A stretch of DNA of 64,000 nt from a bacterium. Its GTDB lineage: Bacteria; RBG-13-61-14; DATKZS01. The notes below the pieces were generated by a model. That model was not told the origin of the DNA, did not search any database, and saw only the letters and a list, made by a program, of their open reading frames with translations. The stretch covers positions 832,001 through 896,000 of the forward strand of contig CAXXFL010000007.1 in NCBI GenBank assembly GCA_963674965.2, in the 5' to 3' direction. Both the position numbers and the translations under genes were made by a program. Positions 1 to 21,641 of the stretch are shown piece after piece. Position 1 is the stretch's first letter. Every line of letters begins with the position of its first letter.

Positions 1-56
1 CAGTACATATGAGCCGATAAGAACCTCGCCATATTGGCGGTGAAAGGATTACGGTC

Positions 57-653
57 ATGGCCCGGGTAAAAGGAACTATTATTTTGGACTTTGTAAAAAC
101 CATCAAGGCGGATAAAAGCGGAGCCTATGACGGTTTTCTTAACGAGGAAGACTGGAAAGTTATCAACCAGCGCGTACTCCCAAGTAATTGGTATCCATAC
201 GAGACTTTCGAGCGGCTCTTCGGCGCCGTGGTCAAGGTCCTGGCCGGCGGCGACATGCATACCGTCCGGCAATGGGGCCGCATCTACGGCGAGGCCATCG
301 TGACGGGCGTCTACCGGGGGATCATCAAGGAAGGCGAGCCGATGGAGAGCCTGCGCAAGTACGGGACTTACATCCGCAACCTTTTCGACACCGGCGAGCT
401 CGTCATCCAGCCCATCACCGCAAACGAGGCCGTGCTGACGGCCCGGGGTTTCGATCCCAATTTCGAGCCTCACTATCACATGATGATGGGATGGATCGAG
501 AGGTCCCTCGAGCTTTGCGGGGCCCAGGACATCAAGATGGATTTCGTTTCCAAGTCCTGGCTCGGGGACAAGGAGACGAAATTCAGCGTCCGCTGGCGTG
601 AGCTTCCCGCCTTCGTGCCGCCCACCAAGGGCATGGTCAAGGAAAAAGGCTGA
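57..653 (+). CDS. Hypothetical protein, DUF2378/TIGR02265-like (H-NOX/V4R-like ligand-binding fold)
   Basis: 198-aa ORF with an AAGGA RBS. N-terminal VKG, internal WYP and the C-terminal GW...LEL.GA pattern are recalled from this family. Confidence 0.55.
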   Translation: MARVKGTIILDFVKTIKADKSGAYDGFLNEEDWKVINQRVLPSNWYPYETFERLFGAVVKVLAGGDMHTVRQWGRIYGEAIVTGVYRGIIKEGEPMESLRKYGTYIRNLFDTGELVIQPITANEAVLTARGFDPNFEPHYHMMMGWIERSLELCGAQDIKMDFVSKSWLGDKETKFSVRWRELPAFVPPTKGMVKEKG

Positions 654-674
654 TCCGATCGCCTGAGGCAATGC

Positions 675-712
675 GCCTCTCCCGGTCTCGGGGCCGGGAG
701 AGGCTTTTTTTT
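675..712 (+). terminator. Rho-independent terminator
   Basis: Perfect 11-bp stem GCCTCTCCCGG/CCGGGAGAGGC followed by a T8 run, directly after the first ORF. Confidence 0.85.
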
Positions 713-2483
713 ATCGGCGGGGAATGATGGGCAGCACTATCCGCGACGGGTGGTCCGGGTCGTGATAGATGACCTGGTTGGCCTCGACGGCGCGGGTGGC
801 TCCGGGGACCGGCTCGCCGGTGTTGAGGTTCCGGTTAAACCGCGGGAAGTTGCTGCTCGAGACCTCGACCCTTATCTTGTGGCCCGCCATAAAAAGGTTC
901 GAGGTCGCCCACAAGTCGATCTCGTACTCCTCGATCTCACCCGGCGTAACCGGGGTGGGGCTTTCCGGGTCGTTGTCCCTGAACATGGCCCGGACCACGC
1001 CGTCCTGGATATTGATGGGCCGGCCATCGGGATGAACGTCCACCAGCTTGACCGTGAAGTCCGTGTCCAGGGCGCTGGTCTTGGCGTAGATGACGGCCTT
1101 GATCGGTCCCGTCACCTCGACGTCCCTCGAGAGCATGGGCGTGGTATAGCAGAGCACGTCCGAGCGCTTTTCCGCCTTGCGCTGGTCGTAGGCCCCCAGG
1201 TTGAGGCCCAGGTTGTTTCCGCCGTAGGTGGGGACCGGGTCGAGCGGGTCGTAGATGAACACGTCGGGGGTCTCCTGGGTCTCGGGCGGCTCCTCGCTCA
1301 AGAGCCCGTCTCCCTCGCCGGTGTTGGCGTGTCCGTCCGAGCGGAAGTAAAAATCCGTGTACTTCGTCCGCTCGAGGGGCCACTCCTTCTCGTCTCGCCA
1401 CACGTTCTCGCCCATCACGAAAATCCTGACCCGGGGCCAACTCGGCACGTCGTTCTCGATGCCCTTCAGATGATAATCGAACCATGACAGCACGTGGGCG
1501 GGGCCGAGCGCGTTCTTTTGCCTGGCCTCCTTGCCGTACTCCATGACTCCGTCCTTGCCGTGGCCCCAGGGGCCGACGATCAATATCGAGTCCCTGGCCT
1601 TGCCCTGGCCCTGGGAGACGATCTTCCGAAAGTCGGAAAGCTGCGGGCCCAGGAACATGTCGTACCAGCCCGCCACGAAGACCGCGGGGGCCGAGACCTG
1701 GGAGTAGCGGTCCTCGAAGTTTACCGATTCGTACACCTTCATTATCTCCGCGGGATCGAGGGCCTGGTTGAAATACTCGACGTCCCGGCCCACCTTGTCG
1801 TCGGCCTGGTCCAGGGGAAGGGTCTTGGCGTAATGGTCGAGCCGCTGGAGCTTCATGGCCACGAGGGGATTGAACCTTCGGCCTCCCATCATGACCGACC
1901 AGAAGTAGACGGTTTGAAGGTGGAGCTCGCCTCCCGTGTACATGACCTCCCGAAGGTCAGGGCTGGTCACGGCCAGGTGCATGGCCCCTATCTCCTGGCC
2001 CGGCGCCGAGAACCACTGGGTCGTGCCCAGGTAAGACCCGCCGTACGTGCCCAGGCGGCCGTCGAACCACGGCCGCTCGCGAATCCAGTTCATGGTCTCG
2101 ACCCCGTCGGGACCGTCATGGATAAAGGGATAGAATTCTCCCTCCGACTTGAACCTGCCCCGGACGTCCTGCTTGACCACTATATACCCGCGCCTCACCA
2201 GAAGGTTGACGGTTTTATCGTAGCCGGAAATGCCCTTGCCGTAGGGGGTCCTTATCAGGATGACGGGGGCCTGGTCCAGGCCCACCGGAGAATAAACGTC
2301 CGCGGCCAGGCGGACCCCGTCGCTCATGGGGATCATCACGTTGGACTGTTTCTTGACCAGGTACTCGGGCTTTCTAAGACGCGGCTTCTTGCTCTTTAAC
2401 TTGAACTTGGCGCAGGAGCCGGACGCCATGGCGACAATGACGAGCAAGAGGGCCGCGTTCCGAAGGCGTTTATTTTGGATCAT
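711..2483 (-). CDS. CocE/NonD family serine hydrolase (peptidase S15-like), probable lipoprotein
   Basis: Motifs MSDGVRLAADVY, RTPYGK, QDVRGRFKSEG, nucleophile GGSYLG, GWYD, GPWGH and SSNFPRFNRN. Hydrophobic N-terminus ends in Cys. Confidence 0.9.
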   Translation of the reverse strand: MIQNKRLRNAALLLVIVAMASGSCAKFKLKSKKPRLRKPEYLVKKQSNVMIPMSDGVRLAADVYSPVGLDQAPVILIRTPYGKGISGYDKTVNLLVRRGYIVVKQDVRGRFKSEGEFYPFIHDGPDGVETMNWIRERPWFDGRLGTYGGSYLGTTQWFSAPGQEIGAMHLAVTSPDLREVMYTGGELHLQTVYFWSVMMGGRRFNPLVAMKLQRLDHYAKTLPLDQADDKVGRDVEYFNQALDPAEIMKVYESVNFEDRYSQVSAPAVFVAGWYDMFLGPQLSDFRKIVSQGQGKARDSILIVGPWGHGKDGVMEYGKEARQKNALGPAHVLSWFDYHLKGIENDVPSWPRVRIFVMGENVWRDEKEWPLERTKYTDFYFRSDGHANTGEGDGLLSEEPPETQETPDVFIYDPLDPVPTYGGNNLGLNLGAYDQRKAEKRSDVLCYTTPMLSRDVEVTGPIKAVIYAKTSALDTDFTVKLVDVHPDGRPINIQDGVVRAMFRDNDPESPTPVTPGEIEEYEIDLWATSNLFMAGHKIRVEVSSSNFPRFNRNLNTGEPVPGATRAVEANQVIYHDPDHPSRIVLPIIPRR

Positions 2484-2526
2484 TCATGTCTCCCCGGCCG
2501 AATTTTCGGCTGTTGGTAATCAGTCG

Positions 2527-2555
2527 ATTATCGAAGGCCAGTCCCCCGATGTCAA
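2527..2555 (-). promoter_or_regulatory. Sigma-70 promoter for the CocE/NonD gene
   Basis: Minus strand TTGACA-N17-GATAAT, about 45 nt upstream of the start. Confidence 0.7.
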
Positions 2556-2597
2556 GAAGAAACCGTCGGGGCGCCGGATCAGGAAACCGACGCCCCG
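2553..2597 (-). terminator. Probable terminator ending the GRE operon
   Basis: Minus-strand 11-bp stem CGGGGCGTCGG/CCGGCGCCCCG (one G-U pair) followed by a T-rich tract. Confidence 0.5.
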
Positions 2598-2622
2598 CTT
2601 AAGCGCTCGATATCCTTACCGA

Positions 2623-3288
2623 TCAGTCCTCCTTGGTCCAGGTCCCTCCCGACTCGATCCGTTTCTTGATGTTGATTACCACGGTCGGCAGGTCCTTCGA
2701 GGTCAGGTAGTTCTGCACCATGCTCGGGACCTTGAGGCCAGTCTCGACCTTGGTGGCCGCGTAGGTGATAAGGGTCTTCTTCTCGTCGACCTTCTCGAAA
2801 TGGAAATAGCCGGCCGTGTCCTTCAGGTCGTGGGGGTAAGAAGGGTCCATCTCGAAATCGACCCGGTGGTTTTTCTCGTCCTTCACGTACTTGACCGTGT
2901 ACTCGATGGTTATAAGCGAGAAGTCGAACTCCTTGTGCACCCAGGAAACTTCCCCCTCCGTCTTGACCACGTCGCTTTTGGTCTTGCGGGGAAAATAAAG
3001 CTGGTGCTTGTCGTACTGGCAGAAAATCTTGAAGGCCTCGTCAATGGGCGCGTCGATCAAGGCCGACGACTGGCCGTGGCCGTGAAGCTTGCCGTCCTCC
3101 CCCTTCTCCTCGACGTGCTCGTAGATGGCCTCGCCGGCCAGGAGCTTTTCCTTTTGCTCGGGCGTGAAGCGGGCGAGAGGCGACTCCTCGGCCGCGGCCC
3201 CCGCCTCTTTTTCCGCGTCGCCTGGGCGCGCCATAAGGGGCAGGGCCAGTGCCAACAGTAACGCAAGCAGTATAGATTTAATCTTCAT
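2623..3288 (-). CDS. SRPBCC/START (polyketide cyclase-like) domain protein with signal peptide
   Basis: Sec-type signal MKIKSILLALLLALALPLMA. Pattern IDAPIDEAFKIF..YD...YFP and a C-terminal helix typical of the Bet v1/START fold. Confidence 0.7.
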   Translation of the reverse strand: MKIKSILLALLLALALPLMARPGDAEKEAGAAAEESPLARFTPEQKEKLLAGEAIYEHVEEKGEDGKLHGHGQSSALIDAPIDEAFKIFCQYDKHQLYFPRKTKSDVVKTEGEVSWVHKEFDFSLITIEYTVKYVKDEKNHRVDFEMDPSYPHDLKDTAGYFHFEKVDEKKTLITYAATKVETGLKVPSMVQNYLTSKDLPTVVINIKKRIESGGTWTKED

Positions 3289-3315
3289 CTTTGTCCTCCT
3301 TGGGCGAAGGGCGGC

Positions 3316-4518
3316 TTACAGATGCTCCGCCGCCTTGACCATCAACGTTTCGTTGGTCCCGTCCATTATCTTAAGAAGGTAGGCGTCGCGGGCGAACTTT
3401 TCAACGGGATACTCCTTGGAGATGCCGTATCCGCCCAGGACCTGGACCATCTCGGCCGTGTGTTTGGCCGCCATCTCCGTGGCGAAGACCTTGGCCGCCA
3501 GGCTGGTCTTGAGGTCGCCGGGAAAATTCTTGGTCGCGAGCCAGCTCCCTTTATAAAGGAAGGTCCGCGAGGCCTCGATGGCCTGGTGGCACTCGAAGAG
3601 CTTCTTGGCGATGAGCTGGTGCTTGAAGATGGGGGCCCCCCATTGGACGCGGTTCTTCGAGTGCTCGAGGGCGTACTCGAAGGCCCCCCTCATCAGCCCG
3701 ACGGCGATGTAGCCCACGCCCAGGTTGCCCACCGTGATAATCGAGTTGTGCAGCATGGGATAGAGCTCGCCGGGAGGGAAGATCATCCACTCCTCGGGGA
3801 CCTCGACCTCGTCGAAGAAAACGGCCGACTGGTTGAGCGCCCGAAGCCCGATCTTGTCGATGGACCTGCCGGTTGTGAGGCCGGGGGTATCGGCCGGAAG
3901 CACGAAGGCGCCCGAGCCCTTGATCCCCAGCGACGGGTCCACGCAGCCGAACACGATGTAAGAGTCGGCTATCCCGCCGTTGGAAACGAAGTCGGACTTG
4001 GTACCGGTCAGATAAAATTTCCCGTCCTTTTTCCTGGCGTCCGTGTGGTGGCGCACGTTTTTGTCGTAATAGTTTTTCCCGTCCGAGCCCACCTCGGGCT
4101 CGCTGCTGCACCAGGCGGAAATCTTTTTCCCCGTCGAGTCCTCGCAATAGGGGGTGACGAAGCGCTCCACCAGGTCCTTCCTGTCCGGGGCCAGGAAGGC
4201 CACGAGCTGGGGGACCACCGCGCCCGGTATGAGGGTCGAGACTACGCCGGGGGCCCACCTGGCCAATTCCTCCCACACCAGGCCGATGGTTTGGGGATCG
4301 AGGCCCAGCCCGCCCATGTGCTCGGGTATGGCCATCTTGTTAAAGCCCAGCTCGAAGGCCTGGCCGATGACGCCCCAGAAGCGGTCACTTTTAAATACCT
4401 GCTCGGGGCTGGCCATGAGGTCCAACTCGACCTCGGCCGGACCGGCCACTTCCTTTCCGAAGTCGTGGGCCGTGTCCATCATCAGTCGTTGAGTTTCGGT
4501 CGGTTCGAAGTCGATCAT
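3316..4518 (-). CDS. Acyl-CoA dehydrogenase family flavoprotein
   Basis: SEPEVGSD, GTKSDFVSNGG, KIGLRA, R.QWGAPIFKHQ, QVLGGYG...EYPVEKFARDA. Confidence 0.92.
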   Translation of the reverse strand: MIDFEPTETQRLMMDTAHDFGKEVAGPAEVELDLMASPEQVFKSDRFWGVIGQAFELGFNKMAIPEHMGGLGLDPQTIGLVWEELARWAPGVVSTLIPGAVVPQLVAFLAPDRKDLVERFVTPYCEDSTGKKISAWCSSEPEVGSDGKNYYDKNVRHHTDARKKDGKFYLTGTKSDFVSNGGIADSYIVFGCVDPSLGIKGSGAFVLPADTPGLTTGRSIDKIGLRALNQSAVFFDEVEVPEEWMIFPPGELYPMLHNSIITVGNLGVGYIAVGLMRGAFEYALEHSKNRVQWGAPIFKHQLIAKKLFECHQAIEASRTFLYKGSWLATKNFPGDLKTSLAAKVFATEMAAKHTAEMVQVLGGYGISKEYPVEKFARDAYLLKIMDGTNETLMVKAAEHL

Positions 4519-4533
4519 TTCACGCTCCAGTCA

Positions 4534-5298
4534 TTATCCGGTGAAGAAGTCGGTGATCTTGAAGTAATAAGGAAGATAGGAGTCGGCGTCCACTTCCTTT
4601 ATCACCGAGCCGGGCCTCATAACGTTGTCGCTCTCGAGGTAGAAGGCCACGTTGACCTTTTCGATCTCGATCTCGGCCCAGGGGTCGTCCTCCGATTCCC
4701 GGAGGGATATCTCGGCGCTCCCTATTTCCAGGCTCTTCATGTCGATGTCCGTCTTTTGCCGGCAAAGCAGGACGGGACCGTCGAAGCCGGGCTGAAGGTC
4801 TATGCGGGGCATGGCCTTGAACAGGAAGTTGGGGCCCGTGTCCGGCATGGCGGGCAGGCTTCCCGACAGGTCGGCCTTGATCTCGACGAACCTTACGCCG
4901 TGCCTCTCGACCCAGCCGCGGACCTTGTTCCCGTTCTTCTCCAGCCCGATGGACGCCATCTTCTTGGGATACCCGAAGATGTCGCGGCCGTTGTACAGGC
5001 GGCTCTCGAGGCTGTCGATGGGCATGGCCAGGCAGTAGCTTCCGCCCTCGTCACCGTACTTGCACCGCAAAAACAACGCGGCCTCCCGATAGCCCGGACC
5101 CAGGTTGGTCTCGGGATACCGGGCGATGAACATCATGCCCGCGGGCGCGTCCGCCGGCTCGAGCGGCGGCGGCAGAAGCCGCTTGACTATCTCCGGCCTG
5201 GTCTCGAACATGACTCCCAGCATGTTCGCGCCAATGAACTTCCTGTCCCCGAACCCGTAATAGGCGTCAAGCTCCTCTTTCGTCTTTGTAAAACCCAT
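4534..5298 (-). CDS. Acetoacetate decarboxylase-like superfamily protein
   Basis: LLPPPLEP, YREAALF and the Schiff-base lysine motif GRDIFGYPKK. Confidence 0.85.
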   Translation of the reverse strand: MGFTKTKEELDAYYGFGDRKFIGANMLGVMFETRPEIVKRLLPPPLEPADAPAGMMFIARYPETNLGPGYREAALFLRCKYGDEGGSYCLAMPIDSLESRLYNGRDIFGYPKKMASIGLEKNGNKVRGWVERHGVRFVEIKADLSGSLPAMPDTGPNFLFKAMPRIDLQPGFDGPVLLCRQKTDIDMKSLEIGSAEISLRESEDDPWAEIEIEKVNVAFYLESDNVMRPGSVIKEVDADSYLPYYFKITDFFTG

Positions 5299-5356
5299 TT
5301 AAAACCTCCCTCTCGGCCCGGCGGAAATTCTTTCTCTTAGGGCCGCTCGATAATTT

Positions 5357-7162
5357 CTATGAAAACCTCTTGAATATCCCCATCCGGCTCGACTGGGCGA
5401 ACAGCACCGCCCGCTCCAGGAAAGTCGGAGAAATCCTGTATACCGTTGCTCCCAGCTTGCCCACCGGCGTCATGATGAGCCGGGCTTTTCTTTTGAGGAG
5501 CATGTTCACGATCTGGTCGGCGGCCTGGGCCTGGCCGTGGTGGGCCGGCCGGTCGGGAAGCACGAGCGAGCCGTCCGCCGCCAGAATCCTCTTTTCCGGG
5601 TCATGCTCGGTAAACCCGAGATAGACGATGCCCACGTGCATGCCCTTTGGCAGGAGCTCGAGGCGAAGGGACTCGGTGAGTCCGGTCAGGGCCTTCTTGG
5701 TGGCGCAGTAAACCGACGCCCCCGGCAGTCCGAATATCCCGGCTATACTGGAGATGAAAACCAGGTGTCCCTTTGCCTCGGCCAGGTGGGAGATGGCCGC
5801 CTTGGACACGTTGACGCACCCGTCGTAATTCGTGCGCCCCACCCTCTGGCAGACCTCGGGCGACAGCTCGATAAAGTGGCCGCGCATGGACACGCCCGCG
5901 TTGTTGATAACCACGTCCAGCCGTCCATAGTTCGATATGGCCGTCTCCACCATGGCGGCGGCGTCCTTGTAATCTCCCACGTCCCCGGTGACCGCGACCA
6001 CGTCCCGTCCCAGCCTTTTCAGCTTTTGCTTCGAGTCCTCAAGGCGTTCCCGACCCCGGGCCGTCATCACCACCCTGGCCCCCCGCAGGGAGAGGGCGCG
6101 GGCCGCGGCAAAGCCGACTCCCCTGCTGGCGCCCGTTACCAGGGCGACCTTGCCCTTGAAATAATCCGTCCCGGAAAACTCGAGGTGTCCATACTCCAGC
6201 AGGGACTTGACCGACTCCTCGATGGCCGTCTCCACCGGGGCGTGCGTCATGCCCAACTCCTTCATGGCCTTGCCCGAGTCGTAATAGGTCCCCATCGCGG
6301 CCAGTTTGGCCATTACGCGGTTGAGCACGGCCTTTTTGCCCGAGACCTTCTCGTAGGCCGAGGCCGCCTCCCCGGCCAGCCGGAGCGCGGGGGCCGGCAT
6401 GATCCGGCTGGGCGCGGCCGTTCCCACCACCTTGGCCACGCGGGTGAAGAAGTCCATGTAAGTCAGGTTGTGGCCGCCCAGGATATAGGTCTCGCCCTTC
6501 CTTCCTTTTTCCCACGCCGCGAAAGCCGCCTTGCTCACGTCCGGCGCGTAGGCGAAGTTCCTTCCCCCCGGCGAGGTCACGGTCAGGCCCTTAACGATGA
6601 ACTGCCTTATCAGCTCGCCTCCGCTGGGCCTCGAGTCGTAGGGCCCGAGCAGGAAAGTGGGCGTCACGATCACCGCGTCCAGGTCCTTTTCCCGAACGGC
6701 CTTCCTGACCAGCTCGGCCGCCTTGTGTTTGGACTCCATGTAGGCCACGCCCTTGTATCCCTCGGGAAACCCCGAGGTCTCGCCGGCCGGTTTCTCGATG
6801 GAGCCAGGCTCGAAGGAACTGGCCGAGCCCACGAAAACCAGCCGGCCCGCGCCGGCGGCCAGGCAGGAATCCACTACCCTCTCGGTGGCCTCCAGATTGA
6901 CCTTCCAGGTTATCTCGGGCGAGGCCCACATGTCGGTGATGGCGGCGCAGTGGAAGACACCGTCGCATCCGTTCATAAGGCCGGCCAGGTCCAGCCCGCC
7001 GTCCAGCAGGTTGCCCTCGAGGCGCTCCATGGGCAGGCCCTCCAGGGTGGGCGTTTTAATTCCCGGCAGGATCAGCGCCTTAACCTCGTGTCCCGCCCCT
7101 AAAACGTCGCGGACGAGGTTCGACCCGAGCAGGCCGTCCGCTCCCGTAATGAAAAATTTCAA
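5357..7162 (-). CDS. Fusion of extended SDR (NAD-dependent epimerase/dehydratase) and classical SDR
   Basis: N-domain TGADGLLG, HCAA, YMESK. C-domain TGASRGVG, NNAG, SSIAG, YCATK. TTG start with AGGAGG RBS. Confidence 0.88.
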   Translation of the reverse strand: MKFFITGADGLLGSNLVRDVLGAGHEVKALILPGIKTPTLEGLPMERLEGNLLDGGLDLAGLMNGCDGVFHCAAITDMWASPEITWKVNLEATERVVDSCLAAGAGRLVFVGSASSFEPGSIEKPAGETSGFPEGYKGVAYMESKHKAAELVRKAVREKDLDAVIVTPTFLLGPYDSRPSGGELIRQFIVKGLTVTSPGGRNFAYAPDVSKAAFAAWEKGRKGETYILGGHNLTYMDFFTRVAKVVGTAAPSRIMPAPALRLAGEAASAYEKVSGKKAVLNRVMAKLAAMGTYYDSGKAMKELGMTHAPVETAIEESVKSLLEYGHLEFSGTDYFKGKVALVTGASRGVGFAAARALSLRGARVVMTARGRERLEDSKQKLKRLGRDVVAVTGDVGDYKDAAAMVETAISNYGRLDVVINNAGVSMRGHFIELSPEVCQRVGRTNYDGCVNVSKAAISHLAEAKGHLVFISSIAGIFGLPGASVYCATKKALTGLTESLRLELLPKGMHVGIVYLGFTEHDPEKRILAADGSLVLPDRPAHHGQAQAADQIVNMLLKRKARLIMTPVGKLGATVYRISPTFLERAVLFAQSSRMGIFKRFS

Positions 7163-7208
7163 TTGTCCTCCTTCTCTTCTTTTGGCCGACGCGATATTTC
7201 CGGACGTC

Positions 7209-8117
7209 TCATCCGTGGATTACGACGGGAAAACCGCGATCCATAAAAATCGACTCGATCCTTTTCAGGTCATCCTCCCCGAGCTTTCCCCTGTCCTCGA
7301 AGTCCCCCGACCTTCCAATCCGATCGTATTTTCCCCTGGCCCACGAGTGATAGGGCATCACGCGCGCGTCGCCCTTGTAGCCCGAGTCCGCCAGAAAGGC
7401 GGCCATGCCCTCGAGGTCCTCCGTCGAGTCGTTATAGCCGGGCACCACGGGAAAACGCGGCATGATCCCGCCGCTTCCTTTCAGGGCCAGGAGGGCCTTG
7501 AAGTTCTCGAGTATCAGAGAGTTTTCCACCCCCGTTCCTTCCTTGTGCCGGTCAGGATCGACGTGCTTCAAGTCGAACAGGACCACGTCCATGGCCTCGG
7601 CGATGGGCTTTGCCAACTCCTTTTTGAAGAACCCGCAGGTCTCGATGGCCAGGTGAACGCCCTTCTCACGGAGCGCCGCCGCCGAGGCCAGCATGAAGTC
7701 GGCCTGATAGGTCGGCTCGCCGCCGGTAAAGGTCACCCCCCCGCCGGAGCGCTTGAAAAACGGCTCGTCCAGCATGACTTGACTAACCAACTCCTCCACT
7801 TCCATCTCTTTGCCTATCTTCTCCAGGGCCCCGGTCGGACAGGCGCGGGCGCAAACGGCGCAGGACTCGCAAACGCTCCGGTCCCGCGCGAGTTTGCCAT
7901 CCACCATGCCGATGGCCGAGTTCGGGCAGACCTCGGCGCATTTGAGGCAGCCGGCGCATTTTTCCGCGTTATGCGACATCTCCGGCAATTCCCCCTGTCC
8001 CTCCGGGTTATGGCACCAGAAACACGAAAGAGGGCAACCCTTCAGGTAGACCGCCGTCCTTATTCCCGGCCCGTCGTAAATGGCGTACGACTGTATATCG
8101 AAGACGATGCCTTTCAT
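7209..8117 (-). CDS. Glycyl-radical enzyme activating enzyme (radical SAM)
   Basis: DGPGIRT, CPLSCFWCHNPE (CX3CX2C), two CX2CX2CX3C ferredoxin-like motifs, GGVTFTGGEP. Confidence 0.95.
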   Translation of the reverse strand: MKGIVFDIQSYAIYDGPGIRTAVYLKGCPLSCFWCHNPEGQGELPEMSHNAEKCAGCLKCAEVCPNSAIGMVDGKLARDRSVCESCAVCARACPTGALEKIGKEMEVEELVSQVMLDEPFFKRSGGGVTFTGGEPTYQADFMLASAAALREKGVHLAIETCGFFKKELAKPIAEAMDVVLFDLKHVDPDRHKEGTGVENSLILENFKALLALKGSGGIMPRFPVVPGYNDSTEDLEGMAAFLADSGYKGDARVMPYHSWARGKYDRIGRSGDFEDRGKLGEDDLKRIESIFMDRGFPVVIHG

Positions 8118-8162
8118 AAATCCGCCCTCCCTCCAGCGGGGAAGGCTTACCCCAAATGAGTC

Positions 8163-10775
8163 TTAATGCTCGGTCCTGGCGATTATCTCGTCCTGGACGT
8201 CCCTTCCCAGTTCCACGAAATAGGAACTGTAGCCGCCGATCTTGACTATCAGGTCCCGGTATTCGTCCGGGTTCTCCCGGGCTTTACGGAGGTCATCGGC
8301 CGAGACCACGGTCGGCTGTATCTGCGCCCCTCCCATCGAGAAATACGTCCTCATCAGGTCGGCCCACTTTTTTCTGGCCTCCTCGTTGAGGCCCACGCCG
8401 GTGGGATGGAATTTCACGTTCACCGCGCATCCCATCACGTCCTCATAGGGGAGGGCCGATATCGAGCGCAAAGCGGCGGTGACCCCGTTTTTCTCGACGT
8501 TGTAAGGATTGCAGCTCGCGGCGTAGGGCGTGGCCGCCCTCCTGCCGTCGGGAGAGGCTATGGAAAGCCTTCCGTCCACCGTGTGGGTTATCATGCTGAT
8601 GATATAAATGACGACGGGCCCGCCGGCGAAGGACCGGTAATCGTAGCTCATGTCGAAGATGCGTTTCATCACGTCGTGAGCCATGGCGTCGGTTTCCGGG
8701 TCTCCGTTCCCCCATTTCCCGGGAAGTTGCTTGATTTTAGCCAGCAGGTCCTCATGGCCCTTGTAGTTAATATCCATGGCCTCCATCAGTTCGCCTATGG
8801 TGACGTCCTTGTTCTCGTAGACAAGCTTCTTGATCACGTAGAGGGAGTCGATCATGTTGGCGATCGAGTTGATGGTGGACACGCCGGCGAACACGTATTT
8901 GCCGCCCCCATTGGTGATATCGCGGCGCTTTTCCAGGCAGTCCTGGACAAAGGCTGAGAGCATGGGGGCGGGTAGGCTCTCGGCGAAAATCCGGTCCCTG
9001 ATGTTTGACCCCTCCACTATCTTGTCCATGAAGAACCTGGCCTGCTTGTAGAGGGCCTCGAGGAGTTCGTCGAAGTCCTTAAAGGATTTCGGGTCTCCCG
9101 TGGCTGGACCGTCTCCCTTGATGGTCCCCGCCAGTATGCGGGAGTCCCCGTTCCGGAGGGTTATATCCAGGAGCCTCGATAACTGAAGCGCGTTGGCGCT
9201 CATGGGCCCGGTCTTGCCCGGGCAGGTGGTCTCGACGCAACCCATCACCGCGTAGTCCCTGGCGTCCTCCAGGCTGAAGCCCCGGTTGACCATGGACTGG
9301 ATATTCATCTCATCCGAGAACAGGGAAAAGGTGCTCGTGCCCTTGGCCGCGTACTCGGCCGTCTGGAAAAGGACCCGGTCGGGCGTCTTCTCGTGCACCC
9401 TGACCGACACGTTGGTAATGGCCTTGGACAAGTGGGCCGCCTCGAGGAATACATAGGTCAGCTCGTTGGAGGCGTCCTCCCCCTCGGGCGTGATCCCGGC
9501 CAGGGTGATGGGCGTGGAACCCAGGAAACGGTGATAGAAGTTGCTTAAGATGTTCGACTCGGGACGGATGTTCTGGGACATGACCTTGAGCAGAAGCTCG
9601 GCCAGAAGCTCGACCGCCCATTCCCTGGTGACTCGTCCCTCGCCGAGGTCCTTTTCATAAAAGGGGTACAGTACCTGGTCCATACGGCCGAAGCAATGCA
9701 GGTAAACGGGATGGGCCGTCTCGATGGCCGTCTTCAGCGTCCAGCAGGACTGCACGGCCTCCTCGAAGGTATCCGCCGCCTGGAGGGGGACCTTGCGGCA
9801 TATCTCGAGCATGCGCCTGAGACGGGCCTTGTCATCGTCGTCCCTCGCGGCCTCGAGGTCCCTCTCGAGGCGGCCGGCCAGGCGGCGGGCGTAGATCATC
9901 ACGCCCTCCACGGCTATATCGATGGACTTGAGGAATTCTTTTTCCTCATCCGCCAGACCCTCGCCCTGGCCCAGGAGTCCCTCTATCTCGCGCTTGATGG
10001 ACTCGAGGCCCCGGCCCAGGACGGGGCCGTAATCCAGGATGATATGGGCGTGGTAGCTGGCGATGGTGGCGCAGGTGGAGAGCATGATGACCTGGCGCGA
10101 GGTATTGCCGGGTATGGCCATGACGAAGTCCCGCATCTGCTCGGAGAGAAGGCCCGACTCGAGCAGTTCCTTTTCAATGAGGTCCACCGTGGTCTTGCCC
10201 TTCCAATAGGGAAGGAGCCTCGAGAGCATCTCCTTTTTATCCTTCTCCTTGATCTGGTAGGGGTTGATGGACCGCTCCGACATGGTCTTGAAATCCATGT
10301 TGAGGGGAGCCGTCCCGCTTTCGCGCGTCATTTTCTGGTTGCGGATGAATTCACCCAGCATCCTTTTTCTGGTCATGTATCCTATGCCCTTGGCCATGGT
10401 CTTGGCCCTGAACTTGACCATGCTTATCTTGTCCAACTCCGACTCGAGCACGGAGTTGAAAACGCCCCTCTCGATATCGATGGGAACGCCGAGGAAATAC
10501 TCGCACCAGTAGCCGGCTATACGGTCGTCGGGGTCAACGTAATGGGTCATCTTCTCGTAGACGTTCTTCATGGCCATGGCCACGCGGACGGGCGTGGAAA
10601 TGCCTTTGCCCTCGGTCGCCTTCCAACTCTCGGTGTAGTACCTGGCCCGCTCGACCGAAATGTAAGCGGGACCGGTCTGGTATTTTCTTCTCATGCGCCT
10701 TATGCGCTCGGCGCCGTCATTTTGCTTTTGCCCGGAGGAGATATCGTCCATTTTCATTACCGGCTGGCTGGCCAT
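8163..10775 (-). CDS. Glycyl radical enzyme (PFL2/eliminase-like), substrate unknown
   Basis: 870 aa. GRMDQ.LYP, Cys loop GCVE, ASPDGR, C-terminal glycine loop LIVKIGGYSSYF ending ARTEH. Adjacent to an activase. Confidence 0.93.
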   Translation of the reverse strand: MASQPVMKMDDISSGQKQNDGAERIRRMRRKYQTGPAYISVERARYYTESWKATEGKGISTPVRVAMAMKNVYEKMTHYVDPDDRIAGYWCEYFLGVPIDIERGVFNSVLESELDKISMVKFRAKTMAKGIGYMTRKRMLGEFIRNQKMTRESGTAPLNMDFKTMSERSINPYQIKEKDKKEMLSRLLPYWKGKTTVDLIEKELLESGLLSEQMRDFVMAIPGNTSRQVIMLSTCATIASYHAHIILDYGPVLGRGLESIKREIEGLLGQGEGLADEEKEFLKSIDIAVEGVMIYARRLAGRLERDLEAARDDDDKARLRRMLEICRKVPLQAADTFEEAVQSCWTLKTAIETAHPVYLHCFGRMDQVLYPFYEKDLGEGRVTREWAVELLAELLLKVMSQNIRPESNILSNFYHRFLGSTPITLAGITPEGEDASNELTYVFLEAAHLSKAITNVSVRVHEKTPDRVLFQTAEYAAKGTSTFSLFSDEMNIQSMVNRGFSLEDARDYAVMGCVETTCPGKTGPMSANALQLSRLLDITLRNGDSRILAGTIKGDGPATGDPKSFKDFDELLEALYKQARFFMDKIVEGSNIRDRIFAESLPAPMLSAFVQDCLEKRRDITNGGGKYVFAGVSTINSIANMIDSLYVIKKLVYENKDVTIGELMEAMDINYKGHEDLLAKIKQLPGKWGNGDPETDAMAHDVMKRIFDMSYDYRSFAGGPVVIYIISMITHTVDGRLSIASPDGRRAATPYAASCNPYNVEKNGVTAALRSISALPYEDVMGCAVNVKFHPTGVGLNEEARKKWADLMRTYFSMGGAQIQPTVVSADDLRKARENPDEYRDLIVKIGGYSSYFVELGRDVQDEIIARTEH

Positions 10776-10801
10776 GTTCCTACCCCCTTGAAAGAAATTT
10801 A

Positions 10802-11410
10802 TTAAACCGATCGTCCCTTTTCTATCGCCTCGATGGTCAAGTCCAACATTTTAAGGACATGGGCTTTTCTTCTTTTCAGCTCGTCCGACGAGAGCGGGTC
10901 GCGGTCGAGGAGTATCTCGAGCACGCCGCTATAGGTGAACCAGGCCGTGATTATCCCGTAGAAGCTCACGAACACGTGCTCCGCCGCCAGGTCCCCTTCC
11001 TTGGTCGCGGGAAGGGCCGCCTGAATTATTTCCATGCCCATCCTGAACATGGGGTTGAGGTTCCGGGCGATACGGCCCACGTTTTTGCCGCCCGAGCTTT
11101 CCCTTTGCACGATGCGGGAGAAATTTCTGTTTTGCGAGAGGAAATCGACGTAGGTATCGACCATGATGGCGAGCTTTTCTCTCAAGGTGGCCTCGGTTTG
11201 AAGGGCTTTCACCAGGGTCTCGCCAAGCCTTTCGTAGTAGCCGTCCAGCACGGACTCGAAAAGACCCTGCTTGGTTTTAAAGTGGTAATGGATGAGGGCC
11301 TTGTTAACGCCAGAGGCTTCGGCGATTTCCCTGGTGGTAGCGGCGTCGAAGCCGATATCTCCGAAGATTTTATCTGCCGCCCGCAGGATATCTTGTTTGG
11401 CGTTGATCAA
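10802..11410 (-). CDS. TetR/AcrR family transcriptional regulator
   Basis: N-terminal HTH GFDAATTREIAEASGVNKALIHYHFKTK. TTG start with GGAGG RBS. Confidence 0.93.
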   Translation of the reverse strand: MINAKQDILRAADKIFGDIGFDAATTREIAEASGVNKALIHYHFKTKQGLFESVLDGYYERLGETLVKALQTEATLREKLAIMVDTYVDFLSQNRNFSRIVQRESSGGKNVGRIARNLNPMFRMGMEIIQAALPATKEGDLAAEHVFVSFYGIITAWFTYSGVLEILLDRDPLSSDELKRRKAHVLKMLDLTIEAIEKGRSV

Positions 11411-11422
11411 TGGCGCCTCCGA

Positions 11423-11446
11423 ATTTAACTAACCGCCCAGTTAAAT
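11423..11446. promoter_or_regulatory. Putative TetR operator
   Basis: ATTTAACT-N8-AGTTAAAT perfect inverted arms between the promoter and the RBS of the TetR gene. Confidence 0.65.
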
Positions 11447-11456
11447 ATTTAGACTT

Positions 11457-11485
11457 ACGTTAGCACGCCATATGGAACATGTCAA
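11457..11485 (-). promoter_or_regulatory. Sigma-70 promoter of the tetR-GRE operon
   Basis: Minus strand TTGACA-N17-TAACGT with an extended TG. Confidence 0.6.
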
Positions 11486-11567
11486 TATAAAATTAGAGTG
11501 AAGTTCCCCCAGTTTTTCAAAACTCGGGATGTACGGCTCGTGGCGGTCTGTAAACAAATCGAAGGCC

Positions 11568-11785
11568 AAGCCCGAAGGGCTTTAACATGAGTAACCGTAG
11601 GCGCCAGCCTACGGGAGGCGTGGCCGGAAATTTCTTCCCCGCCCCTGAAAGGGGCGAACCTTGCCGGGCGTAGGCAGTACACTTCGCCGAGGGTCCGGCC
11701 CGTTCAGGGCCGAAGGAAATTTTACACGCCATCTTTTCCGTAGGCTGGCGCCTACGGCTATTCGAATTTCCCCCTTTCAGGGGGA
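11568..11785. repeat. REP/REPIN-like composite palindromic element
   Basis: 20-bp exact inverted pair CCGTAGGCGCCAGCCTACGG (11595-11614) and CCGTAGGCTGGCGCCTACGG (11738-11757), each flanked by small hairpins (GCCCGAAGGGC, GCCCCTGAAAGGGGC, GGCCCGTTCAGGGCC, CCCCTTTCAGGGG). Confidence 0.7.
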
Positions 11786-11939
11786 GGAGGCCACGTCCGT
11801 TTCAGCGGCGTCCCAGACCATCCGCGCGAGGAGGCGAGGATTGATTTTCACTTCTCGCGGCGGACAACTTGCCGGCTGAAAATGGGAACCAAGAGTGAAA
11901 CGGTCAAAATTGGGGAAGTTCCGAAATTCAGAGAAAAAA

Positions 11940-13145
11940 TCAGGCCCAGTTATCCAGTATCTCGTCGATCCGGGCCACGTTGGCTTCCTCAATGGATATC
12001 CTGGAAGAGACGGCCTGGCCGATGCCCAACTCGGCGGCGTAATAGATTTGCGGCTGGGACCACACGCTCTTATCGACGTAGGGACGGTCCACCTTATCGT
12101 CCGAAGCGTACAGCTTAAGCGCCGATAAAGCCACCGAGTCAGTGGCCACCCGGTCCTTCCCCGCCAGGATCAGCCTCGGCTTGGCCCATACGACGCCGTC
12201 CCGCTTGGGGAAAAGTCCCATGCCGCTGGCGAGAGCGCCCGCGTCGGGACCGCACCGGGTAATAATAGTGGTGGCGTCCACAACGTTGATAAGCGGCCTG
12301 GAACATAGGTTCAATTCCGCGATCTTTTCGCCGATGTTATTCTGATGCATCGCGTTTTTTCCCTCTTGTAGCCTGTCGATGGGCATGCAGATTCCCACGA
12401 AGGCCTTGAGGCAGCAGGTGTATTCGGCGGCTGTAACGTCGTGGTTCTTGAGCATGGGCGCGTTAATCCAGTGATCCACCTCGCTTAGTATGCCGGGCAT
12501 ATGGAAACCTTCGCTCCAATGGCGCTGGCCCGGCTTGAAAAGCTCGTACTTGGATCTGGTAAAGGGGAAGGCTATTGCCCCCTCCTCTTGACAAATCTTG
12601 GCAAAGCCGCACTTTACAAAGGCTTTTTCAGTTTGATAGGCCGAGCGGTCCCCCACCAGCGCCGTTGCTCCGCGCTCTTTTACCATCCTGACTATCGCTC
12701 GAACCACGTCGGGTTTGGTCGTGATCCTGCCGATATCGAGCCCGCCGTCCGACGGCCCGCACATGTTGGGCTTGATCAAAACGCGCTGGCCCGGCTTTAT
12801 CTCGTCTATTCCCCCGGCCGCCTCGACCGACTCCCGGACCGCTCTCTCAATGTCCTTATAGTCAAGGTATTCGCCCGAGACTCGTTTCACCTGGGAGAGC
12901 CCGACCTTGGCGGGGGGCATTTCAGGATAAACGCCGGTTGGCGGTAGAGGATCTGGACCGACCAGGGTGGTTGTTCCATCCGGACCGTATACGGCTTTGA
13001 CCCGATTATAGAAGTTGACCGGCTCGATACCCTTTTGCTTGGGTAAAAAACATCCCGCCGAGGCCAGCCCGAATATTCCGGCCGACGAGGCGGCCCGGAA
13101 AAAGGAGCGCCTGGTAAAATCCGCGTTGCGGAGAATATGCCTCAT
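11940..13145 (-). CDS. DUF362 domain protein with Tat signal and lipobox
   Basis: TRRSFF twin-arginine motif, ASAGC lipobox, VLIKPN, TTKPDVVRA, PMLKNH, DRVATD. Confidence 0.8.
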   Translation of the reverse strand: MRHILRNADFTRRSFFRAASSAGIFGLASAGCFLPKQKGIEPVNFYNRVKAVYGPDGTTTLVGPDPLPPTGVYPEMPPAKVGLSQVKRVSGEYLDYKDIERAVRESVEAAGGIDEIKPGQRVLIKPNMCGPSDGGLDIGRITTKPDVVRAIVRMVKERGATALVGDRSAYQTEKAFVKCGFAKICQEEGAIAFPFTRSKYELFKPGQRHWSEGFHMPGILSEVDHWINAPMLKNHDVTAAEYTCCLKAFVGICMPIDRLQEGKNAMHQNNIGEKIAELNLCSRPLINVVDATTIITRCGPDAGALASGMGLFPKRDGVVWAKPRLILAGKDRVATDSVALSALKLYASDDKVDRPYVDKSVWSQPQIYYAAELGIGQAVSSRISIEEANVARIDEILDNWA

Positions 13146-13514
13146 GAATTTTTCCTTTCCTTCCAGCTCTCACGTGATCGGATATTGTAAAATACTACTT
13201 AAATCGCCCCGTTATTCTACTATACCTTAAACCAATTGAAATGTCACGTTTTTCCTTGGCCGATCCGGCGCGCTCCGCTTTTTTTAACGCGACACAATCC
13301 ATGGAACCATTCAATATTATTAATTTGTTTTTTTCTTTTAACATAACTTCGCGTTTTCTCGCAAAAAGCCTCTGATTTGGAAAATCTGGCGGGAATACAA
13401 TGGACGATAATAAGAATCAATACTCCTGCCTCTTGCAAAGCCCATAAAGATGATTACCTTAAGAGTTAAGTAAAAGAATTCACGGCGGCTTTATTAACAA
13501 GAATGGAGGATTAA

Positions 13515-13796
13515 ATGGAACTCGAGGGAAACATAAAAGAGATTATCGAAAAAGAAGCAAAGGAAATATCCGAGACCTCGGAGTACGACTACGATGACGC
13601 TCTGAGCGCCATGACGAGATCGTACCAGTACGCCCTGGACGTTGGGGAGACCGGTGAGGCGGCTTTCGACAAGGCCCAGGAAATCGTGGGCGAGGCTTTG
13701 ATGGGCGCGAGCAGGATGGGTTTCGAGCTTAGGGGGGCAGTGGATCATCTTCTTTTCTCCATGCACCATCGGACCCCGTCAAGAGGGGCGTTTTAA
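13515..13796 (+). CDS. Hypothetical acidic protein
   Basis: 93-aa ORF with a GGAGG RBS after an AT-rich promoter region. No recognised domain. Confidence 0.55.
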   Translation: MELEGNIKEIIEKEAKEISETSEYDYDDALSAMTRSYQYALDVGETGEAAFDKAQEIVGEALMGASRMGFELRGAVDHLLFSMHHRTPSRGAF

Positions 13797-13811
13797 GAGC
13801 GATCACTTGGC

Positions 13812-13870
13812 TTAAGGCGCGGCGGCCCATTTTGCATCATGATAACTCAAAAAAGGCCGCCGCGCCTTAA
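13812..13870. repeat. 16-bp perfect inverted repeat (hairpin)
   Basis: TTAAGGCGCGGCGGCC-N27-GGCCGCCGCGCCTTAA. Confidence 0.75.
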
Positions 13871-13905
13871 CTTATATGCCTGGACTATTTTTTATGGAAA
13901 AGTAT

Positions 13906-13934
13906 TTGAAACCGGGGAGTAATTGGTGTATATT
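13906..13934 (+). promoter_or_regulatory. Sigma-70 promoter for rpmE
   Basis: TTGAAA-N17-TATATT about 55 nt upstream of the GTG start. Confidence 0.5.
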
Positions 13935-13988
13935 AGATAAATGCCTTACGGGGCGTTTTTTATTTTTCAAATCCCAGGGGGTTTTACC

Positions 13989-14240
13989 GTGAAGGAAGGA
14001 ATCCATCCCAAATACGACAAGGCGCGTTTCGAGTGCGTGTGCGGAAACGTGATCGAGACCAGGTCCACCCGCTCGGGGACCATCAAGGTTGATATCTGCT
14101 CTGCTTGCCATCCGTTTTTTACGGGCAAGGCCAAGCTGCTTGACACGGCCGGCCGGGTCGAGCGCTTTTACCGGAAATACAAAGACCACTACGACAAGCT
14201 GGAGCAGGACAAGAAACAAGAGCAGCCCAAGGAATCTTAG
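13989..14240 (+). CDS. rpmE: 50S ribosomal protein L31, zinc-binding type
   Basis: [36 protein letters not shown]. The GTG at 13989 is preferred over the ORF-track start at 13941. Confidence 0.97.
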
Positions 14241-14354
14241 ACTGGAAGAACTTCTCGCCACGGGTCCGGTCCGGCCGGGTCCGTGGTTTTCTTTTGTTCG
14301 ATCGGCATGGGAATCTGCAAATTGACATTTTCAACTTGGCGGGAGAGGCGTTAA

Positions 14355-15425: not shown

Positions 15426-15588
15426 TTTCCGCCCGGGCGACTATTCCCGGTTGACGTTTAACGTCAAGGCACGCGCCTTTTCCCATCCGGCGCCGAAAAA
15501 AAAAGGTCGCCGTCCATATTGAATTTATTGCGATAATAATCTAATATCAGATTCAATAAGTACTAATCAATCTTGGAGGCGTTCCATC

Positions 15589-17139: not shown

Positions 17140-17143
<4 letters not shown>
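16376..17143 (-). CDS. sdhB: Succinate dehydrogenase/fumarate reductase iron-sulfur subunit
   Basis: [10 protein letters not shown] ([2Fe-2S]), [24 protein letters not shown]. Confidence 0.95.
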
Positions 17144-19050
<1,907 letters not shown>

Positions 19051-21626: not shown

Positions 21627-21641
21627 TTTCACTTTCCTTTC

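Follow-up and report, generated by a model that had tools for sequence, protein, structure and literature searches.

A glycyl radical enzyme gene cluster of uncultured anaerobes that probably encodes a new route of anaerobic breakdown

A cluster of seven genes, all on the (-) strand, lies at positions 2623..11485 of a 64-kb stretch of bacterial DNA (contig CAXXFL010000007.1, positions 832,001 to 896,000), which as a whole we call the window. It includes a glycyl radical enzyme (GRE), which is of an oxygen-sensitive kind, an activating enzyme and a set of metabolic partners. The cluster probably encodes a new anaerobic breakdown route, and its set of enzymes is met again in many anaerobes that have not been cultured, Asgard archaea among them. 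From the upstream end, the genes are the following.

10802..11410, (-) strand: TetR-family regulator of 202 aa with a TTG start (Pfam TetR_N, E 3.9e-16).
8163..10775, (-) strand: GRE of 870 aa (PFL-like PF02901, E 2.6e-140; Gly_radical PF01228, E 5.1e-20).
7209..8117, (-) strand: GRE-activating radical S-adenosylmethionine (SAM) enzyme of 302 aa with two ferredoxin-like cluster motifs (Radical_SAM and Fer4).
5357..7162, (-) strand: fusion of two short-chain dehydrogenases/reductases (SDRs), 601 aa, with an extended SDR at residues 1-330 (Pfam Epimerase, 4-229) and a classical SDR at 331-601 (adh_short, 338-521).
4534..5298, (-) strand: protein of acetoacetate decarboxylase (ADC) fold, 254 aa, with a Lys112-Lys113 pair and Glu72 (Pfam ADC, E 7.1e-49).
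3316..4518, (-) strand: flavoprotein like acyl-CoA dehydrogenases (ACADs), 400 aa, with Asp386 where the canonical catalytic Glu would be (Acyl-CoA_dh N, M and C domains).
2623..3288, (-) strand: secreted SRPBCC/START-fold protein of 221 aa with a Sec signal peptide (structure model and Foldseek).

The coordinates of these open reading frames (ORFs) leave successive gaps of 26, 45, 46, 58, 15 and 27 nt. An earlier reading of the sequence, hereafter the first-pass annotation, had described seven co-oriented genes with gaps of 15-58 nt, and the cluster, with the seven members listed, is confirmed. The activase scores 315.8 bits against the NCBIfam model TIGR02494 (cut-off 174.35). The absence of microcompartment genes, also proposed at first, extends to the whole genome, which is 97.6% complete and has no match to the bacterial microcompartment shell family PF00936, a family that did match in control genomes. 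Without shell genes in the genome, the pathway would run free in the cytoplasm. The first-pass annotation also noted the absence of Bss/Hpd-type small subunits and of proC, at which no search was aimed.

Judged by the cut-offs of the NCBIfam hidden Markov models (HMMs) and by scores against the PDB, the GRE belongs to the superfamily of pyruvate formate-lyase (PFL)-like enzymes but matches no characterised one. It falls below every NCBIfam cut-off: 488.5 bits against 678.2 for TIGR01774 (459.6 bits in the genome-wide search), 437 against 1100 for HypD (NF043068), 435 against 1000 for HpsG, 379 against 1050 for CutC, 376 against 1000 for HpfG, 300 against 1100 for indoleacetate decarboxylase, 261 against 1150 for 4-hydroxyphenylacetate (HPA) decarboxylase, and 85 against 994 for PFL itself. 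The six best PDB enzymes are about equally distant from it, with HpsG (6lon) at 353 bits, HypD (6vxc) at 343, glycerol dehydratase (GD, 1r8w) at 336, IseG (5ymr) at 335, CutC at 333 and propanediol dehydratase (PD, 5i2a) at 328, when the GRE scores 1980 bits against itself. YbiW/PflD reach 269-276 bits over the whole protein; with the C-terminal half alone, HypD is the best match (224 bits) and PflD the third best (206 bits). The comparisons cover all the eliminases (GD, PD, HpfG, HypD, HpyG, HpzG, CutC, IslA/IseG and HpsG) and isomerases (HplG, YbiW and PflD) listed in the passages of a 2026 review (PMC13450708) on characterised GREs. That the enzyme would group with a characterised GRE had been named beforehand as the outcome that would speak against novelty, and these scores give no such grouping. 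According to section 7 of the same review, entire GRE clades lack experimental validation, and a function has been assigned to none of the archaeal PFL-like GREs.

The active site was mapped residue by residue from HMMER alignments. In contrast to the Cys-Cys of PFL, there is a single catalytic cysteine, in a C-x-E motif (Cys513 and Glu515, in GCVETTC); GCVE is kept in 29/30 orthologues, and so is a second Cys five residues on (29/30). The first-pass annotation took the single Cys of GCVE as typical of eliminases. The motif stands, but its exclusiveness does not: in the pertinent sections of the review, C-x-E defines both the GRE 1,2-eliminases (PMC13450708, section 5.6) and the isomerases, among them those that cleave ring C-O or C-N bonds (section 5.7), so that it is not diagnostic of eliminases alone. 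His244 (in SYHAHIILDY) aligns with PD His166 and was matched to GD His164 through the shared Cys/Glu register rather than by direct alignment; the review passage on GD makes His164 the proposed proton donor to the leaving hydroxyl (PMC13450708). This position is invariant in all 31 orthologues that cover the site and in 8/8 members of a sister subfamily, and a 12-residue insertion precedes it in the GRE. Twelve residues after the catalytic Glu, the Asp of the C-O-cleaving dehydratases (GD Asp447, PD Asp452) is replaced by Ser or Ala (segment M-S-A-N-A). With this Asp replaced, the GRE does not have the active site of a canonical diol dehydratase.

Other substrate-binding residues point away from further known activities. 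The sulfonate-holding Arg/Gln/Arg triad of HpsG consists of Arg183, Gln187 and Arg672 (PMC13450708, section 5.6.3), and the two of its three positions that could be mapped read Ala (for Arg183) and His (for Gln187). A CutC search of 13 genomes from the window's phylum found none. The CutC Asp in contact with the trimethylammonium group aligns with His in the window GRE and with Gln in most orthologues. Since neither HpsG Arg183/Gln187 nor the CutC Asp is kept, the GRE is, by its predicted binding residues, not a C-S or C-N lyase. In the superfamily the radical glycine is carried by the motif R-V-x-G-[FWY]; the GRE has a variant of it, V-K-I-G-G848-Y, with Lys in place of Arg. All 38 sequences of the family in which this site is covered read V-K-[VI]-G-G-Y.

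Among named systems, GD (1R8W/1R9D) and PD (5I2A/5I2G) share with the GRE the PFL-like barrel, the Gly_radical domain, the Cys-x-Glu motif and the His, and they too have a dedicated activase with ferredoxin-like clusters. They differ from it in overall similarity (only 336 and 328 bits, and a TIGR01774 score below cut-off), in the glycyl loop (R-V-x-G-Y against K-I-G-G-Y), in the Asp447/452 position and in the insertion before the His. Unlike Pdu-type clusters, the one studied here has neither a microcompartment nor a CoA-acylating aldehyde dehydrogenase, and the partners are instead an ADC-fold protein, two SDRs and an ACAD-like protein. HypD (6VXC/6VXE) has a similar Cys loop, GCVETxC-x-GK, with the second Cys five residues on, but no proline-metabolism gene is seen among the annotated ORFs of the cluster. 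YbiW/PflD (8ID7, 8YJO/8ID0) share the C-x-E motif and act on 1,5-anhydro-hexitol-6-phosphate, cleaving the ring C-O bond next to a carbinol radical to give a ketone, as reported in the review's section on isomerases (PMC13450708, section 5.7); the cluster has no sugar kinase, aldolase or phosphotransferase-system genes. The sister subfamily, at 48-50% identity, has the K-V-G-G-Y loop and the conserved His in 8/8 loci, but its Cys loop reads C-V-D in 8/8 loci against C-V-E in the GRE clade, it occurs as tandem paralogues, and it adjoins an activase in 6/8 loci and an ADC, an extended SDR or a TetR in 0/8.

It is thus very improbable that the GRE is a divergent copy of a characterised enzyme (GD, PD, HypD, CutC or a sulfonate lyase) whose neighbours are incidental. 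Automatic names given to such proteins include 'trans-4-hydroxy-L-proline dehydratase' and 'formate C-acetyltransferase', and the C-terminal half is most like HypD, but the similarity is spread about equally over six enzymes (328-353 bits), and the binding residues of the sulfonate lyases and CutC, as well as the GD/PD Asp, are not kept. The idea is contradicted by equivalog scores that are all below half of their cut-offs, those of HypD, HpsG and CutC included, and by neighbours that are kept across phyla.

The partners give indications of the chemistry. The ADC-fold protein clearly has this fold (PF06314, 166.9 bits against a cut-off of 29.8), and its sequence matches in the PDB are confined to true acetoacetate decarboxylases (3bgt at E 2.8e-12, 3c8w and 3bh2). 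It shares with 3BGT, 3C8W and 3BH2 the Lys-Lys pair in G-R-[DE]-I-x-G-[FY]-P-K-K and one active-site Glu: its motif G-R-D-I-F-G-Y-P-K112-K113 places the PKK on that of 3bgt, and among orthologues the PKK is kept in 17/18 and Glu72 in 18/18. It differs from acetoacetate decarboxylases in its NCBIfam score (NF002614, 62.1 bits against a cut-off of 150) and at the positions of the carboxylate-binding Arg29 and Glu61 of the clostridial enzyme, which read Ala and Phe in the alignment to 3bgt. The protein is therefore, as far as its motifs predict, a Schiff-base enzyme, and not necessarily an acetoacetate decarboxylase. The ACAD-like protein exceeds the cut-offs of PF02771, PF02770 and PF00441; its nearest relatives are short-chain enzymes, with butyryl-CoA dehydrogenase (1buc, E 4.8e-52) in first place. 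The canonical motif of the catalytic Glu, Y-E-G-T, reads I-M-D386-G-T here and I-M-D-[GA] in 14/14 co-located orthologues; the Glu is thus absent from its motif position, the only place where a catalytic base was looked for.

The enzymes closest to the classical SDR are (3R)-hydroxyacyl-CoA dehydrogenase (2et6) and those of the FabG type. This SDR has a basic residue after strand beta-2, a pattern that in SDRs suggests NADPH. The extended SDR (aldehyde-reductase/HpnA-like) has its closest relatives in 3wj7 and 2x4g, which are carbonyl-reductase-type SDRs, and matches the Pfam families Epimerase, 3Beta_HSD and NAD_binding_4 (the 'Male sterility' acyl-CoA reductases); against HpnA itself it scores 205 bits, below the cut-off of 367. 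The two SDRs are also fused in L016, L018 and L020, and are two adjacent genes in most other loci; fused architectures of SDRs with proteins like fatty acyl-CoA reductases (FAR), such as PRK07201, exist.

These affinities allow a specific proposal, in which the substrate would be a 3-hydroxy acid of four or five carbons whose neighbouring carbon bears a leaving group (3,4-dihydroxybutyrate, a 2-deoxy-aldonate or a carnitine-like compound): the GRE would turn it into a 3-keto acid (e.g., acetoacetate), the ADC would decarboxylate it, and the SDR and ACAD would take part in chemistry of the 3-hydroxybutyrate/crotonyl-CoA type. It accounts for the restriction of the ADC-fold protein's PDB matches to true acetoacetate decarboxylases, for an ACAD-like protein that is nearest to butyryl-CoA dehydrogenase and also matches crotonobetainyl-CoA dehydrogenase, for a classical SDR nearest to 3-hydroxyacyl-CoA dehydrogenase and FabG, and for the deep conservation of the GRE and ADC pair, adjacent even in Asgard loci. 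We nevertheless find it unlikely. The ADC score is low (62 against 150 bits) and the carboxylate-binding Arg is Ala, the loss of the trimethylammonium Asp of CutC in the GRE argues against carnitine, and the core has no thiolase or CoA-transferase.

The gene set is far from confined to this genome. A protein search gave 412 relatives of the GRE at E <= 1e-50, and the best 120 of them are all at least 58% identical to it. Source labels among these 120 include Desulfobacterales, Phycisphaerae, Hydrogenedentes, Myxococcota and Actinobacteria, to which genome contigs add Planctomycetales, Gemmatimonadota, Thermodesulfobacteriota and the Asgard Helarchaeota and Promethearchaeota. Overall, orthologues at 56-73% identity occur in many bacterial phyla and in Asgard archaea. 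In the window's own phylum, 12 of the 13 species genomes in the collection hold one (56-71% identity), G007 alone being without. The neighbourhood survey drew on 69 sources, namely the window, 23 loci from genomes and 45 from metagenomes. Of these, the 19 shorter than 6 kb were dropped to keep 50, L026 was lost because no GRE ORF was called in it, and 9 duplicates with GREs at least 97% identical were removed. There remained 32 loci (the window included) whose GRE reaches 54% identity or more, and 8 sister loci (48-50%). The former are distributed over Planctomycetota, Myxococcota, Gemmatimonadota, Thermodesulfobacteriota and Asgard archaea. Family representatives served as tblastn queries for the neighbour counts, with limits of E <= 1e-6 and at least 40% query coverage, since the greedy ORF caller chose antisense ORFs where loci are rich in GC; because many contigs are truncated, the counts are lower bounds.

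ADC: 21/32 GRE loci, 0/8 sister loci.
Extended SDR: 21/32 GRE loci, 0/8 sister loci.
Classical SDR: 18/32 GRE loci, 2/8 sister loci (unrelated, 28-30% identity).
ACAD-like protein: 17/32 GRE loci, 2/8 sister loci (unrelated, 24-31% identity).
Activase: 14/32 GRE loci, 6/8 sister loci.
TetR: 10/32 GRE loci, 0/8 sister loci.
EamA-like permease: 8/32 GRE loci, 0/8 sister loci.
START-fold protein: 6/32 GRE loci, 0/8 sister loci.
Protein with uroporphyrinogen decarboxylase (URO-D) and HMG-CoA_red_N domains: 6/32 GRE loci, 2/8 sister loci (33-34% identity).
GalT-like protein: 4/32 GRE loci, 0/8 sister loci.
Corrinoid protein: 3/32 GRE loci, 2/8 sister loci.
CocE/NonD-family hydrolase: 1/32 GRE loci, 0/8 sister loci.
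DUF362 protein: 1/32 GRE loci, 0/8 sister loci.

The ADC, both SDRs and the ACAD-like protein thus accompany the GRE in 17 to 21 of the 32 loci, and the possibility raised at the outset that close homologues might lack these neighbours did not materialise. TetR orthologues (51-57% identity) adjoin the GRE in other loci as well. Gene orders vary, from TetR-GRE-activase-SDR-SDR-ADC-ACAD, through ADC-ACAD-TetR-GRE-activase-SDR-SDR, to arrangements with divergent SDRs. A constant gene set in varying order suggests that function, and not inheritance alone, keeps the genes linked. The Asgard loci L013, L024 and L048 read TrmB, a second GRE, FAD_binding_4, CCG, ADC, GRE, URO-D/HMG-CoA_red_N and a corrinoid protein; as GRE and ADC are adjacent even there, they form the deepest-conserved pair. 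The second GRE of Asgard loci (L013:2839-5391, L024:4043-6595), about 30% identical to that of the window, lies four genes upstream, beside the genes of a CCG-domain protein and of a FAD protein like GlcD, under a regulator of the TrmB type.

The near-universal presence of the GRE in the window's small phylum (12/13 genomes) could also be read in a different way, i.e., the operon might be biosynthetic and supply these anaerobes with a necessary lipid component or with a metabolite in reduced or deoxygenated form. The NADPH-type residue pattern of the classical SDR and the lack of an importer in the core would suit this. Yet TetR control through an operator on the regulator's own promoter typifies inducible catabolism, the patchy spread over unrelated phyla fits a niche substrate, and all the characterised PFL-like GREs of the review are catabolic (PMC13450708). 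We rate biosynthesis as quite improbable, although not to the degree of the divergent-copy explanation.

Regulation and boundaries of the cluster involve the following features.

11485-11480, (-) strand: promoter-like TTGACA upstream of TetR.
11423-11446, (-) strand: 24-bp palindromic operator candidate, ATTTAACT-N8-AGTTAAAT, a perfect 8-nt inverted repeat.
2568-2596, (-) strand: weak candidate for a terminator, a GC-rich 10-bp hairpin with a T-rich run behind it (hairpin fold).
711..2483, (-) strand: CocE/NonD-family hydrolase with a lipoprotein-type signal (TIGR00976, 416.5 bits against a cut-off of 66.3).

The operator candidate is placed just 5' of the TetR ribosome-binding site, and its core pattern has one match in the 64-kb window and none in 100 shuffles. 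The palindrome recurs behind a TTGACA and 5' of the TetR orthologue in other loci, exactly in L014 and L056 and with one or two changes in L019 and L067. It is thus kept in five loci where TetR heads the operon (the window included), which makes it a conserved operator candidate and a handle for finding the inducer. Of the two boundaries that the first-pass annotation gave to the cluster, the promoter/operator therefore gains from the TTGACA and the conserved palindrome, and the terminator does not hold up as well: the hairpin folds no better than shuffles (z -1.42, with 18/200 shuffles folding at least as well), and a terminator scan of the region did not flag it. The hydrolase gene downstream has its own strong promoter-like site (2555-2527, 11/12 positions matched) and is possibly an accessory gene in this genome only. 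No Rfam family matches in window positions 1-16000. Between the DUF362 gene and the TetR promoter lies a non-coding repeat element of about 360 bp (11540-11900) with inverted repeats inside; at least 11 near-full-length copies of it, at 81-91% identity, plus fragments, are scattered over contigs C1, C2, C6 and C7 of the genome.

The last gene of the cluster has only a sub-threshold Pfam match (Polyketide_cyc2, 20.1 bits against 27.4), but structure modelling confirms that it encodes an SRPBCC/START-fold protein. Its Atlas score to Polyketide_cyc clusters is 0.97, and the AlphaFold2 (AF2) model (mean pLDDT 73.8) has a helix-grip fold whose best Foldseek hits are the aromatase/cyclase (ARO/CYC) ZhuI (3tfz, E 2.5e-8), TTHA0849, PYR/PYL receptors and the START domains of CERT and StAR, with a probability of 1.00 to ARO/CYC, PYR/PYL and START domains. 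A Sec-type signal peptide is visible in the sequence, so that the assignment as a secreted START-fold protein, made at first from the letters alone, is well founded. Orthologues at 40-48% identity lie downstream of the ACAD gene in five other loci.

This protein bears on the hydrophobic substrate that was proposed initially, for which ether lipids or glyceryl ethers, lipid diols, sphingoid bases and polyols of the steroid or hopanoid type are candidates. An exported hydrolase and a periplasmic START-fold carrier would deliver the compound, the GRE would dehydrate a diol head or eliminate an alkoxy group, and the ADC-fold enzyme would beta-eliminate the remaining alkoxy group from a 3-alkoxy-aldehyde. 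A number of hints favour the idea. First, the secreted START-fold protein is found in 6/32 loci. Second, the lipoprotein-type CocE/NonD hydrolase adjoins the cluster, and a 63%-identical paralogue lies beside a second cluster with a GRE and an extended SDR. Third, the extended SDR matches HpnA, 3-beta-hydroxysteroid dehydrogenase (3-beta-HSD) and 'Male sterility' acyl-CoA-reductase families. Fourth, a CrtC-type lipocalin adjoins the cluster in L011. Finally, cleavage of an ether (a ring C-O bond) by a GRE is established for YbiW/PflD, as said in the isomerase section of the review (PMC13450708, section 5.7). These hints are weak, and others oppose them: the START-fold gene is missing from 26/32 loci and the hydrolase from 31/32, the ACAD-like protein is nearest to short-chain enzymes, the HpnA match is low (205 against 367 bits), the EamA-type permease (8/32 loci) and the URO-D and corrinoid neighbours suggest small polar molecules, and the Asgard set is reduced to GRE and ADC beside methyltransferase/corrinoid genes. 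The access of a soluble GRE to a membrane lipid would also need an explanation. A lipid-like substrate is thus doubtful, although of the four alternatives weighed in this text it is the one to which we give most credence, followed by the 3-hydroxy acid.

The URO-D-family gene is a further recurrent neighbour. Its product, of about 510 aa, has an HMG-CoA_red_N-like N-terminus and a URO-D-family C-terminus and is 71-75% conserved within the phylum. The gene lies directly beside the GRE in L013, L014, L017, L024, L048, L052 and the short contig L056, and in 5/11 GRE-bearing relatives from the phylum (G002, G003, G004, G005 and G012). It is found between TetR and GRE in L014 (2648-4207) and L056 (1370-2899), and the L024 copy is at 11569-13074. 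In the window genome, a 73-75% identical copy is unlinked, on another contig and in an unrelated context (G000:C3:318728-320458). A corrinoid protein follows the gene in the Asgard loci and in the sister subfamily, and the window genome has three corrinoid-protein homologues elsewhere. In the PDB the protein finds only MtaA (E 1.6e-5), CdmB (7.1e-5), a chloromethane methyltransferase, and URO-D, all of them weak matches, and its Atlas scores are only 0.80. The H-x-C zinc site of MtaA reads H-S-D. From such distant similarities the protein may be a methyltransferase or a decarboxylase, and its linkage hints at a substrate that may be methylated in some hosts.

Altogether, we favour, with a probability of about 0.55, a catabolic operon, repressed by TetR, for a hydroxylated organic compound, in which the GRE carries out a C-O-cleaving 1,2-elimination or an isomerisation that is followed by Schiff-base, redox and CoA-level steps. 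The computations show the genes with their domains and motifs, their joint conservation, the operator and the distance of the GRE from all characterised ones; co-transcription, repression, the type of reaction, the roles of the partners and the order of the steps are what we infer from them. The process could involve 1) release of TetR from the palindrome, which overlaps the promoter, by the substrate or a CoA-level intermediate; 2) placement of a radical on Gly848 of the GRE by the radical SAM activase; 3) abstraction of a hydrogen from the carbinol carbon by a Cys513 thiyl radical, with Glu515 taking the hydroxyl proton; 4) protonation by His244 of the oxygen leaving group (water, an ether oxygen or a ring oxygen) on the neighbouring carbon, to give an aldehyde or a ketone as in GD/PD or in YbiW/PflD-type isomerases; 5) formation of a Schiff base between this carbonyl and Lys112 of the ADC-fold protein, which would decarboxylate a beta-keto acid or drive a beta-elimination or dehydration; 6) interconversion of alcohol, aldehyde and possibly acyl-CoA by the SDR pair; and 7) action of the ACAD-like flavoprotein, with its Asp386 instead of Glu, on a short acyl- or enoyl-CoA that would feed central metabolism.

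Several observations weigh against this catabolic reading. The conserved core has neither a transporter nor a CoA ligase or transferase, and the Asgard loci keep only the GRE and the ADC of the partner set. In the GRE, the Asp447/Asp452 of GD/PD is replaced by Ser or Ala. The Ala and Phe at the Arg29 and Glu61 positions of the ADC-fold protein weaken a plain acetoacetate-decarboxylase role, and an ACAD-like protein without the canonical Glu makes an ordinary alpha,beta-dehydrogenation less than assured. The basic residue of the classical SDR suggests NADPH and with it a reductive or even biosynthetic role.

A bolder version of the catabolic route is that the GRE and the ADC-fold enzyme make up an anaerobic ether-cleaving module new to description. 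The GRE would act on a glyceryl ether, either an alkylglycerol or a compound released when archaeal or bacterial ether lipids are broken down, and dehydrate its free diol end to a 3-alkoxy-aldehyde, from which the Lys iminium would beta-eliminate the alcohol, much as apurinic/apyrimidinic (AP) lyases do, and the SDR pair and the Asp-type ACAD-like enzyme would convert the C3 fragment to propionyl-CoA. We hold this as a long shot, a little behind the 3-hydroxy acid and a little ahead of biosynthesis. If true, it would explain ether-lipid turnover in anoxic sediments and the fact that the enzyme is common to Asgard archaea and many sediment bacteria. A search for literature on glycyl radicals together with ether lipids returned nothing relevant.

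The set of partners (ADC-fold, two SDRs and Asp-type ACAD-like protein) was seen with no characterised GRE, and the literature searched contains no paper linking a GRE to ADC-fold and ACAD partners. Within it, titles, abstracts and passages on Asgard glycyl radical enzymes include none on this clade, work on GREs with corrinoid methyltransferases concerns only choline and betaine, and papers on 'Acetoacetate decarboxylase-like' proteins deal with enduracididine or unrelated topics. The existence of uncharacterised GRE clades was already known. What is new are the neighbour counts, the conserved operator candidate, the Asp-type ACAD, the pattern of the ADC active site, the linked URO-D-family gene and the near-universality of the GRE in the window's phylum. 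A large clade with such clear signatures is a well-defined target in the search for a new anaerobic radical reaction, and for the study of carbon turnover in anoxic sediments.

The genome has five PFL2-type GREs, none above the TIGR01774 cut-off, and only three activase genes. A second GRE cluster (L095, G000:C7:966001-985000), flanked by an integrase gene, lies about 130 kb from the first. Besides its GRE of 802 aa, it encodes an extended SDR that is fused to a 2x[4Fe-4S] domain, a flavodoxin, a PNPOx-like protein, an AMP-forming CoA ligase, a thiolase-like protein, a MerR-TetR fusion regulator and the CocE/NonD hydrolase 63% identical to that of the window.

The rest of the window holds further metabolic genes. 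A Wood-Ljungdahl set at 20742-35991 and 52486-54255 comprises the subunits of acetyl-CoA synthase/carbon monoxide dehydrogenase (ACS/CODH), the corrinoid Fe-S subunits, a pterin-binding methyltransferase, the activator RACo, FolD, NuoF/NuoE-like proteins and formate-tetrahydrofolate (THF) ligase. A fumarate-reductase-type flavoprotein is encoded at 16379-19062 and a class III polyhydroxyalkanoate (PHA) synthase, PhaC/PhaE, at 54371-56646. The Na/sulfate-symporter (CitMHS-type) transporter encoded at 42096-44153 has a response-regulator receiver domain as an N-terminal fusion; around it are Cache-domain histidine kinases and another transporter of this kind, at 47197-49041.

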